Assembly: GCA_020345765.1 (NCBI GenBank)
Contig: CP070770.1
Location: forward strand, 1,130,972 to 1,194,971
Reading direction: 5' to 3'
DNA length: 64,000 nt
Source: Deltaproteobacteria bacterium
GTDB lineage: Bacteria > Desulfobacterota > G020345765
Each line of letters starts with the position of its first letter. The first letter of the stretch is position 1. This document shows positions 25,501 to 50,030 of the stretch, piece after piece. Below the pieces are notes generated by a model. It was not told the DNA's origin and did no database searches. It saw only the letters and a program-made list of their open reading frames with translations. The position numbers and the translations under genes are program-made.

Positions 25501-26616
25501 ATGGAACTGGATATCTCGCGGAATGTTGCCGAATCGCCCGTCGATGTTGACATTGAAGCAGTAGCGGAGTTTATTGCCGGGCTGCAGAAAAATGATGGGG
25601 AGATCCCCTGGTCCGAAGGGGGAAAGACCGACCCCTGGGATCATGTTGAAAGCGCTATGGGGCTCGGTGTCGCTGGGTACTTAAAAGAGGTGGAGCGGGC
25701 CTATGAGTGGATGTCACGGACCCAGCTCAAGGACGGCAGCTGGTGGGCATATTACCGGGACGGAGTCCCGGAGGACAAGACGAAGGATACCAACTTCTCA
25801 TCCTATATTGCCGTCGGGGTTTTCCACTATTACCTGCTCACCGATGATGTCGCCTTCCTCAAACACATGTGGCCAACCCTGAAGGCGGGGGTTGACTTTG
25901 CGGTCAGCCTCCAGGCCCCAACCGGCGAGATCTACTGGGCAAAAAACCGTGACGACATCGTGGATCCCATGGCCCTCCTGACGGGCAGTAGTTCCGTTTA
26001 CCTTAGTATCAAGTGTGCTCTGGTCATTGCCTTCCTCCTGGGAAAGAGACAACCCGCCTGGAAAAAGGCGCTTAAAAAATTAGAACATGCCCTCCGGAAC
26101 CGACCCGACCTTTTTAACACGACGAAGTCCCGCTACTCCCTGGACTGGTATTATCCCGTCCTCTGCGGTGCCGTTACCGGTATCGATGCCCGCCGGCGGA
26201 TCGAAAAATACTGGGATAATTTCGTGGTACCCGGGTGGGGGGTACGCTGTGTCTCCGACCGGCCCTGGGTAACCATGGCGGAAACCTCGGAGCTGGTGTT
26301 GACGCTGGCGGCCATTGAGGAATACCAGCAGGCGGAGACGATTTTCAGTTGGCTAAATGACAAGAAGTATGAGGACGGTTCCTACTGGATGGGTGTTACC
26401 TTCCCCGATTCGGTTATCTGGCCTGAGGAGAAAACATCGTGGACTGCGGCCGCGGTACTTCTTGCTCACGACGCCCTCCATGAGATAACGCCGGCATGCT
26501 CACTGTTCAGTCACAGTTTCTGGAGTACCCCGGAGATCCTTTCCCGTACAAGAGATCTGTCCGACGCGATCCGAAAAGAAAAGACCGACGAGATCCCCAT
26601 CAATTTCAATAGCTGA
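25501..26616 (+). CDS. alpha/alpha-toroid protein (prenyltransferase/terpene-cyclase-like or GH15-like)
   Basis: 371 aa. Repeated aromatic-rich 'DGSWW/DGSYW' helical-hairpin pattern. The family assignment is tentative. Confidence 0.6.
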   Translation: MELDISRNVAESPVDVDIEAVAEFIAGLQKNDGEIPWSEGGKTDPWDHVESAMGLGVAGYLKEVERAYEWMSRTQLKDGSWWAYYRDGVPEDKTKDTNFSSYIAVGVFHYYLLTDDVAFLKHMWPTLKAGVDFAVSLQAPTGEIYWAKNRDDIVDPMALLTGSSSVYLSIKCALVIAFLLGKRQPAWKKALKKLEHALRNRPDLFNTTKSRYSLDWYYPVLCGAVTGIDARRRIEKYWDNFVVPGWGVRCVSDRPWVTMAETSELVLTLAAIEEYQQAETIFSWLNDKKYEDGSYWMGVTFPDSVIWPEEKTSWTAAAVLLAHDALHEITPACSLFSHSFWSTPEILSRTRDLSDAIRKEKTDEIPINFNS

Positions 26617-26637
26617 AGCGGTAAGGAGTCTGTCACA

Positions 26638-27351
26638 TTGAAGAAAGACCATCGTCCTTACATAGTCAAGCACTTGAGCGCCCAATTCCAGAACTGGTAT
26701 GTAAACTATTTCCTCCGTCCCCAATTCGAACATCTTGGCAAAGAGTTCATCTTCGTCGGGTCCCGGCACATAGAGATAACCGGATGGCCGATTACGCTGG
26801 GGGACTACGCAAATGTCGTCGCTACTCCGGACCGGAAAGTCAGGCTGACCGTCTGGTCCAACCGGGAAGACCGGGGGCGTATCCGGCTCGGGGACTACTG
26901 TCTGATCTGCCCGGGTGTGAGGATCAGTTCTGCCAGTGAGATCGTCATCGGGGACAATTGTATGATGGCCCAGGGCGTATATATTACCGATTCGGACTGG
27001 CATGACATTTATGACCGCAGCGTTATCATCGGGGAGAAGTCGGCACCGATCAGGATAGGAAATAATGTCTGGTTAGGTGACAGCGTCATTGTGTGCAAGG
27101 GAGTTACTATCGGGGATAACAGCGTGATAGGGGCCGGGGCGGTTGTCGTCAAAGAGATCCCGCCCAATGTCGTCGCGGCCGGTAACCCCGCGGTCGTCGT
27201 GAAGCATCTCGATCCGGAAAGAGAGCTGAAAACACGTTCCGAGTGGTTTACAAAATTAGCCGTATTAGATGAAATGGACCGGAAAGTGCGCAAGAAAAAT
27301 ACGATCTTCGGGTGGCTCCGGTCAAAGGTTTTCCCCGTCAGAGGAGACTAG
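26638..27351 (+). CDS. hexapeptide-repeat (LbH) acyl/acetyltransferase
   Basis: 237 aa, TTG start. 'IGNNVWLGDSVIVCKGVTIGDNSVIGAGAVV' left-handed beta-helix repeats. Confidence 0.85.
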   Translation: MKKDHRPYIVKHLSAQFQNWYVNYFLRPQFEHLGKEFIFVGSRHIEITGWPITLGDYANVVATPDRKVRLTVWSNREDRGRIRLGDYCLICPGVRISSASEIVIGDNCMMAQGVYITDSDWHDIYDRSVIIGEKSAPIRIGNNVWLGDSVIVCKGVTIGDNSVIGAGAVVVKEIPPNVVAAGNPAVVVKHLDPERELKTRSEWFTKLAVLDEMDRKVRKKNTIFGWLRSKVFPVRGD

Positions 27352-34667: not shown

Positions 34668-35753
34668 CTATCCGAATAGAAAATCGAGGCTTCTTTCGGT
34701 ATCCGGGGTATACCCAAACACCCTCTCCCACACCTCTTTGGTTTCCATGCAGAGATAAACCGGGATCTTCGGACAGAAGCCCTTGATCCGATCAAGCAGT
34801 TTCCGGTAAGCCTCTACCCGGATGTGCTTGAGATAGCGCAGCTTCCCGTCGGCGCAAGGGACAAACTCGCCGCAGAGGATCTTGCTTCGGGGGAACCTTC
34901 TCCTGATAATCCGCTTCAGCAAGGGATAGTAGCGGAATCCTCCCAGGCTGATCCAGCTTACCCGGAGGGGGTCGACCACGGCAAATAGTTGATCGACAAC
35001 CCCCCGGTACTCTTTCTCCCAATCCGGGTAGATAATAATCGGGTCGAAATGAAAGCCCAATTGGTATCCGGCATCCTGACACCTCCGGGCGGCCTTCAAC
35101 CTCCGGGCAAGGGATGGGGTTTCTGCCTCGTCCTCGTCGATCACCCGTTGGGGACTGAGAGACCAGGAGACAATCACCCGGTCTCCGTGATCCAGTCCGA
35201 TAAGATTATCGACCAGATCGGTCTTGGTCTTCAGCTCCAGCACGGCATTTTTTTGCCGGGCAAAGAAGGGGACGATGTCTCTGGTGAACCCGGTAATGTT
35301 ATCGAGGACCAGGCTGTCGGCCAGCTCCCCGGTTCCGAGACGATAACTGCGCTCCCGGTTGGCATCCAAAAACCGTGTAATCTCATTTAACATATCCCCG
35401 GTATTGGCAAAAACCCTCATCAGGGGATTATTCTCCAGGTATCCCTGGAGAGCACAGTAGCTGCATTCCAGGGGACAGTTCGTGGCAGCATTGATTACAT
35501 AATAATTGCAGCAGATATGGATCTTGGTGCCCGGGCACTTTTTTACGAATGTGCCCGGGTGATTTGTTATCAGAAGTAGCTTCTTTCCGTCGCTAATGGG
35601 ATCCTGCGCTTTCGCTACCCTGCCCAACGCATCCTGAGGGTCTTCGATATATTCTACTGGCACCCCGGGAAGGTTCCCCAGGATCACCCGGGTCAGCTCC
35701 TTATCCTGCGCCTCTTTCTCGATAAAAATAGTCTCCGGACGATATTGTTCCAT
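34668..35753 (-). CDS. spore-photoproduct-lyase-family radical SAM enzyme
   Basis: 361 aa. 'KCPGTKIHICCNYYVINAATNCPLECSYCALQGY' matches the SplB-type architecture and carries a CxxxCxxC motif. Confidence 0.85.
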   Translation of the reverse strand: MEQYRPETIFIEKEAQDKELTRVILGNLPGVPVEYIEDPQDALGRVAKAQDPISDGKKLLLITNHPGTFVKKCPGTKIHICCNYYVINAATNCPLECSYCALQGYLENNPLMRVFANTGDMLNEITRFLDANRERSYRLGTGELADSLVLDNITGFTRDIVPFFARQKNAVLELKTKTDLVDNLIGLDHGDRVIVSWSLSPQRVIDEDEAETPSLARRLKAARRCQDAGYQLGFHFDPIIIYPDWEKEYRGVVDQLFAVVDPLRVSWISLGGFRYYPLLKRIIRRRFPRSKILCGEFVPCADGKLRYLKHIRVEAYRKLLDRIKGFCPKIPVYLCMETKEVWERVFGYTPDTERSLDFLFG

Positions 35754-35768
35754 AAATACTGACCTGAC

Positions 35769-36749
35769 TCAAATTATCTTCAAAATTTCTTTTATTTCCG
35801 GGGACTTAGAGAGTTCTAACAACCTCTCGGCCACCTTCTTAAGTTTCTTAGGATCACGGAATTGAAACTCTACCTTGAGCTCGTCCCCCTCAAAGTAGGG
35901 AGGGGGTGAAATCTTTAGCTCAGGAGGAAGATGCATTTGCTTTAATCCCTCCTCCACCTGTGCCTCAATCCCGGTCAACTGCGGATACCTCTTTTTTCTG
36001 AGGATATACCTGATTAACTCGACCTTCCTCGGCCGGGCGATCCCCTCATCATCGAGAACCGCCTCAATCTCACGATCACCAAGAAGTCCCTTAATCGGTA
36101 CCCCGTCCCGTTGCGAGGTCTCTTCCAGAAAATTAAGGAATTCCATTATCCGGTTCACGCCGAGATTCAGCCGGGAGATCAGCCGGAAGCTTGCCTGCCT
36201 GTCCTCCGGAGACAGTGTAAGTAACCGGGAGGGAACCCGAACCGGAAGATCCCTTTGGACGACATATTCCTTGATCTCCTCTTCCAGTTCAATCACTGGT
36301 AGATACTGGTGGAAAATTGCCTCCCCGGCCTCCAGGCCCAAAAGGGGGAGATACTCCCCGATAATCAGTGACTGGTCAAGACCAAATTGATTATGGAGCT
36401 TGCTTAAAACCATCGATCTCTCGATGTCGTTATAGTCACGGTGGCCCAGGTTTTCAAACAACCCCAACAAGAATCCCCCTTGATCACTGAGCTCCGCTTC
36501 GGGGTAAACCATGGCCTCGATTTTTTCAAAACCCAGCTCCCGGCAGGCCAATGCCCTCCGCAGGCCGCAGACTACCTGGTATTTTCCCGTTTTTTCCAGT
36601 TGCCGGACAATCAACGGCTGGATCAGGCCAATCCGGGCGATCGATTCCTTGATTCTCTCGCACTCAAGCGGATAGGTGGCGGAAAAGATCCTGTCTTCGA
36701 AATCGATCCTCTCGGTTTCCACCTTTTCCGGGTTTCTTCTCTTTAGCAT
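35769..36749 (-). CDS. ParB/Srx N-terminal-domain protein
   Basis: 326 aa. 'GLIQPLIVRQ...YQVVCGLRRALACRELG' ParB box. Uncharacterised helical C-terminal half. Confidence 0.8.
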   Translation of the reverse strand: MLKRRNPEKVETERIDFEDRIFSATYPLECERIKESIARIGLIQPLIVRQLEKTGKYQVVCGLRRALACRELGFEKIEAMVYPEAELSDQGGFLLGLFENLGHRDYNDIERSMVLSKLHNQFGLDQSLIIGEYLPLLGLEAGEAIFHQYLPVIELEEEIKEYVVQRDLPVRVPSRLLTLSPEDRQASFRLISRLNLGVNRIMEFLNFLEETSQRDGVPIKGLLGDREIEAVLDDEGIARPRKVELIRYILRKKRYPQLTGIEAQVEEGLKQMHLPPELKISPPPYFEGDELKVEFQFRDPKKLKKVAERLLELSKSPEIKEILKII

Positions 36750-45927: not shown

Positions 45928-46887
45928 CTATATCCACCTCACCCTCGCCGGATTGCGCTTGACCAGGCGGGTGTACTTTACATTCGGGTAACCGAGCGTC
46001 ATGGCACCGTAGCACTTCTGGGTTTTGGGAATACCCATCCACTTCTTCAGCTTCTTATTGAAGTTTACCGATGTCTGGAGAAAACCGTTAAAGCAACACC
46101 CGATACCCAGCGTATGGGCCATCAGCGAGCAGTTGTAGAGCGCCGCGGCGCACGAGAAAGCCTGAGTCTCGTCATACTTCTCCCCGGTAACCAGCATGAT
46201 CGCAGGGGCGTCGTAAAAGATCCGGTCCTCTCCCTGCATCTGCCGCTCGTAGAGGAGCTGCATTCCCGGCACGTACCTATTTTTCATCCGCTCCCTGACC
46301 TCATCCCCCATCAAGTGCGAAGAGAACGGCATCGAAACAACCTTCCCGATAAAGGCAAACATCTTCATCACCACCGGGAGGGCGATGGTGCGGAGCTCAT
46401 CGATCTTTTCCGGGTCGGTAATCACGATGTAGTTGATGGTCTGGGCGTTAGTGCCGGTAGCGGTATACCGTCCCGCCTCGAGGATCTTTTCGAGGTCCTC
46501 CCGGGCCAGTGGTTGCTTTTTATATCTGCGCACCGACCGCCGCGAGCGAAAAAGCAGCTGCAGGGCGTTGGGGAACGACGGGGAATCGAGGTGGGAAGCG
46601 GGGATTCCCTCGGGTACGGAAAAAGACTCGATAATAGCATTCGCGGGACACGTTGCCCCGCAATGCCCGCATTTGATACACATTTCCGACCTGACGATAA
46701 CAACCTGGTCGTCCCGCATCTCGTATGCCATCGTCGGGCAGACCTTCAGGCAGATACCGCACTTGGTGCACTTATCCTGGACAATACTCGGGTAGTCCTT
46801 ACCGGGAATACCACTGCTCTGCTGGGTTGAAGTTTTATCATTCATCTGTCGGTTTCCTTTGGTTTTGGGCTCTCCCCATTCTATCAC
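45928..46887 (-). CDS. 2x[4Fe-4S] ferredoxin domain fused to nitroreductase-family domain
   Basis: 319 aa. 'CTKCGICLKVCP' and 'CIKCGHCGATCP', then 'RRSVRRYK...' nitroreductase fold. Confidence 0.88.
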   Translation of the reverse strand: MIEWGEPKTKGNRQMNDKTSTQQSSGIPGKDYPSIVQDKCTKCGICLKVCPTMAYEMRDDQVVIVRSEMCIKCGHCGATCPANAIIESFSVPEGIPASHLDSPSFPNALQLLFRSRRSVRRYKKQPLAREDLEKILEAGRYTATGTNAQTINYIVITDPEKIDELRTIALPVVMKMFAFIGKVVSMPFSSHLMGDEVRERMKNRYVPGMQLLYERQMQGEDRIFYDAPAIMLVTGEKYDETQAFSCAAALYNCSLMAHTLGIGCCFNGFLQTSVNFNKKLKKWMGIPKTQKCYGAMTLGYPNVKYTRLVKRNPARVRWI

Positions 46888-46948: not shown

Positions 46949-47227
46949 TTATGTTCCTGTTTTGAGTTCTTCTTTTACCTTCTCGGCAAGATAGATTTTC
47001 ATCAGAGATTGGTAGGGGACATCTTTTTGACGGGCAATATTCCTCAATTGCTCGAATAGTCTTTCGGGCAGCCTGATCGAAATGTGTCGGGAAGAAGGCC
47101 GCAGGTTGGGGAAGTATGCTCTTTCTGCTTTTGACCAGTCAATATATTCGGTAGAGTCATGGGTACTCCAAAATTCACGTTCCTCATCCTCGTTTTTAAA
47201 CTTTGGTATCCTCTTCAATTTTTTCAT
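46949..47227 (-). CDS. brnA: BrnA-type antitoxin (CopG/RHH)
   Basis: 92 aa. 'EEREFWSTHDSTEYIDW...ISIRLPERLFEQLRNIARQKDVPYQSLMKIYL'. Confidence 0.85.
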   Translation of the reverse strand: MKKLKRIPKFKNEDEEREFWSTHDSTEYIDWSKAERAYFPNLRPSSRHISIRLPERLFEQLRNIARQKDVPYQSLMKIYLAEKVKEELKTGT

Positions 47228-47510
47228 GGTACACCTTTCTTTCTTTTTTATTCATATTCCGCGCAGAAATAACCCTTATCCTCCCCTTTCGGATAGTGAA
47301 AACAACAAAAAGGAAACGACCCTCGTTTGTTACACCCAAAACAGAAAAACGCTCTTCTTGGGGAGTTCCTCTTTTTTCAATTTTTGTTACTATTGGTTCG
47401 TTAAAGAAGACTTCTTCGCATTCAAGGTGATGGACTTTGTGTTTATCCCAGTTTTTGTCAATATTGCTCTCGTCCCAATCGAAACTTTTACATTCAGTAA
47501 AGGTCTTCAT
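47196..47510 (-). CDS. brnT: BrnT-type ribonuclease toxin
   Basis: 104 aa. 'FDWDESNIDKNWDKHKV...ECEEVF...RIRVISARNMNKKERKVY'. Overlaps brnA by 32 nt. Confidence 0.88.
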   Translation of the reverse strand: MKTFTECKSFDWDESNIDKNWDKHKVHHLECEEVFFNEPIVTKIEKRGTPQEERFSVLGVTNEGRFLFVVFTIRKGRIRVISARNMNKKERKVYHEKIEEDTKV

Positions 47511-48675: not shown

Positions 48676-48712
48676 TTATTATTTAAATTGTTTTCTCAAA
48701 CCACCCATCTTC

Positions 48713-49954
48713 TTACTTAAACCTTTTTGCCCGGGGGCCGGTTATATGGATAGGATTAATTTTTGCTAACAGGCGGGTGACTCCCAGGCTCAGCCGGGGC
48801 AGTATGTCATTTTCCCTGCCCTTAAGCTCGAAATACCGATGGAGCCAGAACTCGGCCATATTATCCGCAGGGGGCTTATGCACCTTCCGCTCCCGTAAGG
48901 TGATGGCCTTTAACTTTTCGCACTTAATGACGCATACCCCTCAGCCGCTACAGCGTTTATAATCTATAACCGCCTCCTTGTCCTTCATGGTAATCGCACC
49001 CATTGGACAAAAATCGAGGCATATCTTAAACCCCTTACACTTCTCCGGGTCAATGACTGCCTCAAAGTGGCTTTGGGTCAGGATATTGGGGCTGTTAAAC
49101 TGTTTCAGTGTGCGCATAATAGCACAGCAGCAGCTACAGCAGGAACAGACGAGTATGGGGTCCCGGGTATTCTCGGTCATGTGGACCAGGCCCGACTCGG
49201 TTGCCCGCATTTTGGCTTCGAGAAACTCCTCTTTGGACACCCTTCGGCCCATTCCCGCTTTAATTGCCCCCTCCGCCGGCAGGCCCATCGTCGAGCAGGT
49301 ATTCTCAAGCCTTCCGCAACCTTTCCCGAGCAGGACCATCCCTTGCCGGCAGGCACAGACATTTATCAGGCATAGGCTTTTCTTACTCCGCTCAACCATC
49401 TCGGAATATATATCGGTAGGAAACGCTATCACCCCCAGCCCGGGTGAGGCCTCAATAGCGCGCTCGACCGAGATGATCCGGCCGTACGGCACCCCGAAGA
49501 TCTGATACCTCTTCGCCACTTCCTGGGAGCACAGCCACTGGTTAAACTCCTCCCAAAACTCCTTGAAAAGCCGGGTGAACTCTTTGTAGAATTCTCCACT
49601 ATCACCCTCCCGCATCTTCTTATCACTCATGAGCATCTGGGCATCATATACCATCGGATACAGGGGCATGAGCCCGTAGAGGGAAACCCCTTTCACGGTA
49701 AAGCCGATGATCAGGACCCGTTCGGCGAGCGACTGCAAGATCGGCTGGACCTCATCCACCGGACGGTTCACCTTTTTCGCAATTGATTTGGGGGACTGCA
49801 TCTTCATCCCGAGCTGGTTGATGATCTCCGCCTCCTCCTCGGTAAAGGTGTAGGCAAGCACATTTAAGAGAGAATCAAGGACGATTATTTCTTTAAATGT
49901 GTCCTTGTGCAGGTATTTTTCAGCCAAGGCTCGGTGGGCAGGGCCTATTTGCAT
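48713..49954 (-). CDS. Cys-rich Fe-S protein with an in-frame TGA at 48941-48943 (selenocysteine candidate or pseudogene); the track ORF is 48941-49954
   Basis: 'CACRQG', 'CSCCSCCC' and 'CKGFKICLDFCP', then 'C-S-G-TGA-G-V-C-V-I-K-C'. The same frame stays open 75 codons to TAA 48713-48715. Confidence 0.6.
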
Positions 49955-50001
49955 CTCGAGTTCCTCTTACTACTTCTGCATTATATTTTGCATTATTTTT
50001 C

Positions 50002-50030
50002 TTGACAAACAGTCGCTTCTTCTCTATATT
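50002..50030 (+). promoter_or_regulatory. sigma70-type promoter
   Basis: TTGACA (50002-50007), 17 nt spacer, TATATT (50025-50030). Upstream of the SnoaL-like gene. Confidence 0.55.

Follow-up and report, generated by a model that had tools for sequence, protein, structure and literature searches.

Can a TGA codon that falls on a metal-ligand position of an iron-sulfur (Fe-S) protein gene be read as selenocysteine (Sec), or is the gene simply broken at that point? This question is raised by a minus-strand open reading frame (ORF) in a 64-kb stretch of contig CP070770.1 from a Deltaproteobacteria bacterium (the whole stretch of 64,000 nucleotides is called the window below, and its positions are used throughout). 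An earlier note on this DNA, made from the letters alone, had pointed out that the ORF stops at a TGA on a Cys slot of a ferredoxin-type motif and that the same frame continues past it. Our analysis favors an ordinary stop codon, arising from a recent nonsense substitution or from a consensus error, with an estimated probability of about 0.68. Within this explanation, a real nonsense change and a consensus or base-call error are split roughly 2:1.

The in-frame TGA and its position in the ferredoxin motif

The ORF as deposited (49954..48941, minus strand, as are all features of this gene) encodes 337 amino acids (aa). Its product ends in ...IDYKRCSG and is followed by the TGA (48943-48941), which takes the place of residue 338. 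Past the TGA, the reading frame is GVCVIKCEKLKAITLRER... through 75 sense codons up to a TAA at 48715-48713, and the read-through product has a length of 413 aa. The start of the M28 peptidase gene (48675) lies 265 nucleotides (nt) from the TGA and 37 nt from the TAA. All coordinates of the earlier frame analysis, both gap lengths and the count of 75 codons were reproduced to the base. As judged by homologue coverage, the 75 codons and the TAA (48713..48940) complete the ferredoxin fold and add a conserved extension at the C-terminus (..KPPADNMAEFW..RYFELKG..LGVTRLL..INPIHITGPRA). One of the peptides encoded C-terminal to residue 338 is VHKPPADNMAEFWLHR.

GenBank entry UCD85634.1 ("hypothetical protein JSU92_05440") has the same sequence as the 337-aa product; it comes from a metagenome-assembled genome (MAG) of a Deltaproteobacteria bacterium with a record of 3,416,995 bp. 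This exact protein was found in a single database record, and a search for a second, independent assembly found none. TGA terminates 18 of the 60 long ORFs of the window and is therefore an ordinary stop there, as had been proposed earlier; an alternative genetic code was ruled out by the same count. Two other long ORF pairs separated by an in-frame TGA, at 25501-27351 (plus strand) and 34668-36749 (minus strand), turned out to be merely neighboring genes.

Amino acid sequence alignment places the TGA (48941..48943) at the second Cys of ferredoxin motif 2 (C-I-G-C-G-V-C-V-x-K-C), a near-invariant column in which essentially all homologues have Cys. The codon in this column is TGY in all homologues. 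Motif 2 of the target gene (residues 335-345, 48920..48952) reads C-S-G-[TGA]-G-V-C-V-I-K-C, with Ser336 in place of a near-invariant Ile. The alignment bears out the assignment of the TGA to the second Cys slot of a CxxCxxCxxxC motif. No homologue that ends at this point or lacks motif 2 was found in the alignment, at the genome loci or among the representative clusters.

A candidate reinitiation site was noticed after the TGA. A GTG at 48883, preceded by GGGAG with a 6-nt spacer (48860-48883, minus strand), opens the remaining 56 aa of the frame. This GTG/GGGAG combination is probably fortuitous and derived from conserved R-E-R-K codons.

Search for a SECIS element

In the consensus of the bacterial selenocysteine insertion sequence (bSECIS), an upper stem of 4-16 bp carries an apical loop of 3-9 nt with a G among loop positions 1-2, the spacing from the UGA is 16-37 nt and the minimum free energy is <= -7.5 kcal/mol (PMC13188914). 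Exhaustive enumeration of hairpins (stems of 4 or more contiguous bp) and constrained folding each gave zero matches to the strict consensus at the target site. The same strict test was passed by 33% of 1,500 random in-frame positions in genes of the window. When the consensus was relaxed, we found a weak imperfect hairpin of 42 nt (-10 kcal/mol) located 5-46 nt after the U of the UGA (48898..48939), which is a near-miss and not a match. Its apical part, UUAA-GUGCGAAAAG-UUAA, is the sole candidate with a G-first loop at an allowed spacing (loop about 20-22 nt downstream); the loop is 10 nt long and the stem has +2.8 kcal/mol when folded alone. At 28% of random coding positions, the RNA folds at least as well as this relaxed hairpin.

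The earlier note had described another hairpin, CACCUU-ACGGGAGCGG-AAGGUG (48881..48902), and had cautioned that it lies too far from the UGA to be called a SECIS. The hairpin exists (6 bp, -4.6 kcal/mol in the enumeration) and the caution was justified: its 10-nt loop begins 47 nt from the UGA with 'AC', without a G at positions 1-2, and the hairpin fails the consensus. Folding of the 54- and 87-nt segments past the UGA compared with dinucleotide shuffles gave z-scores of -1.0 and -0.57, respectively. In seven Cys-encoding genes the homologous segment has -9.3 to -14.4 kcal/mol vs -11.6 kcal/mol at the target. Since the Cys homologues fold equally well, the RNA structure at the target is not site-specific. 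Rfam models found nothing in the whole window at gathering thresholds, and nothing in 48700-49000 at E<=10. The SECIS search that had been proposed earlier thus found none, nor any conserved RNA structure.

As a positive control, an AhpC/TSA-like (Prx-like) gene with an in-frame TGA passed the strict consensus. Its SECIS, GGCACC-UGGA-GGUGCU, starts 22 nt past the UGA and has -15 kcal/mol. This gene was observed at three of the homologue loci (L086:2683-3147, minus strand, and also L087 and L088). It is split into 43 + 102 aa with the TGA at the peroxidatic-Cys position (..LLRGFG-TGA-PYARRHL..), and it is a genuine-looking selenoprotein gene. Its hairpin serves as an example of a real SECIS in these organisms. 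The genomes concerned retain Cys in P0004, their homologue of the target protein.

Recurrence of the TGA and the weight of its Cys position

TGA was not found at this column in any of 95 database homologues retrieved by a word-index search. In tblastn searches, no TGA-carrying homologue was found among 80 genome loci and 4 metagenome loci; one stop was seen in 98 high-scoring segment pairs, located opposite a gap and not opposite Cys. In about 1 Mb of ferredoxin-rich loci, a regex scan detected no TGA within any CxxCxxCxxxC motif. Among the top 150 of 1,010 representative clusters, TGA-carrying or naturally truncated members were likewise not found. The recurrence expected of a selenoprotein was therefore not observed, in collections that hold no relatives above 70% identity: such relatives were looked for and none was found, and the closest non-self homologue (P0002) shows 69% identity. 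In pipelines that search for Sec/Cys pairs, singletons are seen as possible sequencing errors (PMC2398784). The 64-kb window gave no tRNA or tRNA-Sec predictions with ARAGORN, and sel genes or other selenoprotein candidates were not found within it.

How much weight should be given to the location of the TGA on a Cys codon? Cys codons make up 19 of the 413 codons of the gene. Of the single-nucleotide routes to any stop, 9-12.5% start at Cys codons, and of those to TGA, 39-56% do so (range by transition bias). Once an in-frame TGA is present, a Cys location is therefore near a coin flip under the null and weak evidence. The earlier note was correct that the TGA sits exactly on the Cys slot, a location of little evidential weight in a Cys-rich gene.

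Conservation on both sides of the TGA

Compared with 23 intact homologues, the target protein has a mean identity of 0.559 before the TGA and 0.587 after it, and the resulting downstream/upstream ratio of 1.05 is at the top of the range of the intact members (0.76-1.06). The UGA is aligned with Cys and shows conservation on both sides, the pattern looked for in selenoprotein genes. Two findings proposed earlier as arguing against decoding, an unconserved downstream frame and homologues that terminate at this point, were not obtained: the ratio of 1.05 speaks for conservation, and the column is Cys in homologues of which none terminates here. The downstream frame is conserved as in intact homologues, and the interruption would therefore be decoded, very young or not real. 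Judged from the sequence, 75 undrifted codons would mean that they are translated, that the interruption is very recent or that it is unreal.

Weighing the explanations

We consider the TGA to be, most likely, an undecoded stop within an otherwise intact, conserved Fe-S protein gene. One very recent third-position change, from Cys TGY to TGA, would be sufficient. This change may be real, in which case the sampled population carries a nonsense mutation as a segregating allele or a young pseudogene, or it may be a consensus or base-call error of the assembly. With an undecoded stop, translation would end at residue 337. The 337-aa product would contain half a ferredoxin fold and would be without three cluster II ligands and the cluster I remote ligand C345; because of these missing ligands it is predicted to be non-functional in electron transfer. 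The intact and conserved downstream frame fits a very young lesion or an error. The earlier note had left Sec insertion and a nonsense or assembly error side by side as alternatives; the evidence moves clearly to the broken gene or error, and Sec is left as an unlikely alternative.

Several observations weigh against an ordinary stop. There is zero visible decay in the 75 downstream codons or elsewhere in the protein. No other broken genes were seen in the 64-kb window, which gives no obvious sign of an error-rich assembly. Some genuine bSECIS elements deviate from the consensus (PMC13188914). Near-invariant columns (n = 74) were defined as those with at most one deviating sequence among 24 full-length sequences. 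The target departs from three of them: C309F (second Cys of motif 1), I336S and C338 to TGA. All three departures fall within the 18 ferredoxin-domain columns (hypergeometric p = 0.013). The 56 near-invariant columns outside the ferredoxin domain are unchanged, and the N-terminal 295 residues are fully conserved. Phe309 and TGA338 occupy the same second-Cys slot in the two motifs, a known 3Fe/4Fe switch position. This pattern hints at directed remodeling of cluster ligation more than at a random hit, a hint that we consider outweighed by the negative SECIS evidence. The loss of the same slot in both motifs together with I336S, with the rest intact, keeps the Sec and read-through explanations alive.

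Motif 1 (residues 306-317, 49004..49039) reads C-K-G-F-K-I-C-L-D-F-C-P as described earlier, with Phe309 (TTT, 49030-49028) in the second-Cys slot. With codon 338 being TGA, 6 of the 8 Cys expected for two CxxCxxCxxxC motifs are encoded. CxxFxxC(x)nCP is a recognized [3Fe-4S]-type motif, found for example in M. marinum Fdx6, and the examined members of the CxxXxxC(x)nCP set all bind [3Fe-4S] clusters (PMC6237146). Motif 1, as CxxFxxC(x)3CP, has this [3Fe-4S]-type pattern, with a non-Cys second slot and with the other three Cys and the CP kept. Phe309 is therefore poor evidence of decay, the use to which it had been put in the earlier note. In P0002 (L085:1719-2963), Ser replaces the first of the motif-1 Cys (S-K-G-C-K-T-C..C-P). 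With this Ser in the closest homologue, cluster-I ligation appears labile (relaxed or remodeled) in the clade of the target and P0002.

If UGA-338 were decoded as Sec (or as a Cys delivered by SelB), a full-length protein of 413 aa would be made with a Se ligand at the second-Cys position of cluster II, directed by a non-consensus SECIS. The alignment of the TGA with a near-invariant Cys agrees with such decoding, and so does an intact downstream frame with conservation like that of intact homologues. The deviations cluster in the Fe-S motifs (p = 0.013), and the imperfect 42-nt hairpin has its onset 4 nt past the UGA and a G-first loop at about 20-22 nt. Genomes of relatives use Sec in the AhpC/TSA-like gene, Fe-S-related selenoprotein families are known (RnfB-like PRK07118/NF005503, UxxC), and some bSECIS elements break the consensus (PMC13188914). 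However, the target fails a consensus that 33% of random sites pass, its hairpin is matched by shuffles, random sites and Cys homologues, and the UUAA/UUAA upper stem is unstable alone. The TGA is a singleton of the possible sequencing error class (PMC2398784), with no TGA homologue in any set searched. The window has yielded no tRNA-Sec, sel genes or other selenoprotein candidates, and about half of the random hits that create TGA would be expected to fall on Cys. Taken together, we regard Sec at this codon as unlikely.

Very unlikely in our estimate is a real TGA that is tolerated, through near-cognate read-through by a Trp or Cys tRNA or because the 337-aa winged-helix and poly-Cys protein is functional. 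The second Cys of motif 1 is already Phe in a recognized 3Fe-type pattern; Trp at 338 would give a second [3Fe-4S]-type motif, CxxWxxC, parallel to CxxFxxC, and TGA is one transition away from TGG. P0002 lost a different motif-1 Cys, in line with labile cluster ligation in the clade, and full conservation of the N-terminal 295 residues would fit a functional short product. A long-standing truncation, however, should have let the 75 codons decay, and they are undecayed. No homologue ends near this point or is without motif 2, and truncation cuts away half of a confidently modeled ferredoxin fold. UGA-G is not known to be a leaky context. An ordinary stop that arose very recently, or that is an error, accounts best for the site.

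Protein family and domain organization

The read-through product has 95 homologues in 5.8 billion proteins with E-values of 1e-196 to 1e-100. Nearly all are 400-456 aa long and cover 99-100% of it. A full HMMER scan of 1.84 billion representatives (clusters at 50% identity) found 1,010 clusters at E<=1e-30. The target belongs to this family by full-length homology and by the invariant Cys of CxCR..C..C and CSCCxCC (P0002-P0095). The family is large and uncharacterized, and has no curated Pfam or NCBIfam model beyond Fer4. Residues 296-355 match Fer4_10 (30.7 bits, gathering 25.5) and Fer4 (29.2 bits, gathering 21.1), with Cys modeled at 338. NCBIfam models of the PorD/KorD, RnfB and HdrA type matched the ferredoxin domain alone, far under their cut-offs.

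AlphaFold2 with an alignment gave a mean predicted local distance difference test (pLDDT) score of 83.6 and a model with winged-helix-like, helical/central poly-Cys, ferredoxin and C-terminal helical parts. The pLDDT is 73-91 over residues 331-380, and residues 338-380 are modeled confidently within the ferredoxin fold. The N-terminal winged-helix-like domain (about residues 27-95, 49670..49876) was assigned by AlphaFold2 secondary structure and by Foldseek matches to winged helix-turn-helix domains of the MarR/ArsR type. In the central poly-Cys region (49124..49357), the motifs CxCR..C..C and CSCCxCC hold nine Cys (C200, C202, C213, C220, C270, C272, C273, C275 and C276) that are invariant in the alignment. 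This central domain has no Pfam model, and when modeled alone (pLDDT 78) it gave zero PDB fold matches at E<1. PDB searches with the full protein, by fold and by sequence profile, found relatives for its winged-helix and ferredoxin parts and for no other part. The central domain (family region 49124-49666, minus strand, P0002-P0243) is probably a multi-cluster Fe-S domain joined to the winged-helix domain.

In some members (P0003, P0006, P0021, P0029 and others), a Lys/Ala/Thr-rich low-complexity insert of 30-45 aa is found between the ferredoxin motifs (A1 columns about 441-490). Two truncated database entries, P0042 and P0079, were considered as natural truncations and rejected; they carry frameshifts inside the Lys-rich insert. 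On the contig of P0079 (L089), several other genes are likewise broken up into neighboring pieces (Formyl_trans_N / Formyl_trans_C, and DUF2889 twice), as is typical of a frameshift-rich long-read assembly, and the truncated family members there are artefacts.

Genomic neighborhood

The neighbors of the target gene are functionally unrelated to it: the M28 peptidase, a BrnT/BrnA pair, a ferredoxin-nitroreductase fusion, a SnoaL-like gene, a flavin adenine dinucleotide (FAD) amine-oxidase-like gene and RND efflux components. No conserved gene neighborhood was found, as the neighbors differ at every homologue locus examined. Elsewhere, the window has the content of an ordinary chromosome, including asd, truA, RNase G and hrcA-grpE-dnaK-dnaJ.

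A sigma-70-like promoter match, TTGTCA-17-TATAAT (11/12, 49980..50008, minus strand), lies upstream of the ATG at 49954, and this consensus match suggests that the target gene has its own promoter. It is one of two back-to-back near-consensus sigma-70-like promoters in 49980-50030, the other being TTGACA-17-TATATT on the plus strand, each matching 11/12. The target gene and the SnoaL-like gene diverge from a 120-nt intergenic region, in which this pair lies.

The BrnT/BrnA-type pair, two genes downstream of the target, is an overlapping type II toxin-antitoxin pair (46949-47510, minus strand) of a BrnT-family ribonuclease toxin (47196-47510) and a CopG/BrnA-type antitoxin (46949-47227). The fusion gene (45928-46887, minus strand) joins a two-cluster ferredoxin domain to a nitroreductase-family domain and thus encodes a second Fe-S redox protein <2 kb from the target; this linkage is not conserved at other loci.

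Comparison with known systems

With nonsense-interrupted genes of MAGs, the target shares a single in-frame stop one base from the ancestral codon, intact flanks and the absence of a recoding signal. It differs from them in that its stop is on a metal-ligand Cys, the sister motif has also lost the equivalent Cys and no decay is visible downstream. Most probably, the target site is a plain interrupted gene. The Fe-S selenoprotein family NF005503/PRK07118 (UxxC) resembles the target in having a UGA at a conserved Cys in a CxxC-type Fe-S context, a conserved downstream frame and a Deltaproteobacteria-type host. In contrast to that family, the target has no consensus SECIS and no second Sec-containing homologue. 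Membership in NF005503 was rejected (31.8 bits vs a cut-off of 252, with the ferredoxin domain alone matching).

Motif 1 of the target is exactly CxxFxxCxxxCP and in this respect is like the CxxFxxC(x)nCP of M. marinum Fdx6 (PMC6237146); it differs in that it lies within a two-cluster domain of a 413-aa multidomain protein, and its 3Fe type is predicted from sequence. Residues 296-355 match models and structures of 2x[4Fe-4S] domains (Fer4/Fer4_10; PorD/KorD delta, the HdrA C-terminal ferredoxin and RnfB). Unlike these domains, the target encodes 6 of 8 canonical Cys, and its N-terminal 295 residues are unrelated to those proteins.

Implications

With an ordinary stop, JSU92_05440 would represent a 413-aa gene that is cut short in the annotation, and it should be flagged as interrupted. 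The site also carries a caution for screens of Sec/Cys pairs: Cys codons receive about half of the point-mutational TGAs in Cys-rich Fe-S proteins, and a TGA on a conserved Cys has little weight by itself.

A more novel outcome has slightly less than the small chance we give to Sec decoding overall: that UGA-338 is read as Sec via a non-consensus SECIS, which would make this protein the first Sec member of the winged-helix / poly-Cys / ferredoxin family. Were it true, Se at the 3Fe/4Fe switch position beside a sister cluster with CxxFxxC would amount to a deliberate retuning of both clusters. It would also add a new selenoprotein family, with Se ligating a ferredoxin-type cluster and a SECIS outside the consensus, of interest to selenium and Fe-S biochemists. 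Arguably, the protein family itself, with its poly-Cys domain lacking a PDB counterpart, is a more interesting object than the TGA.

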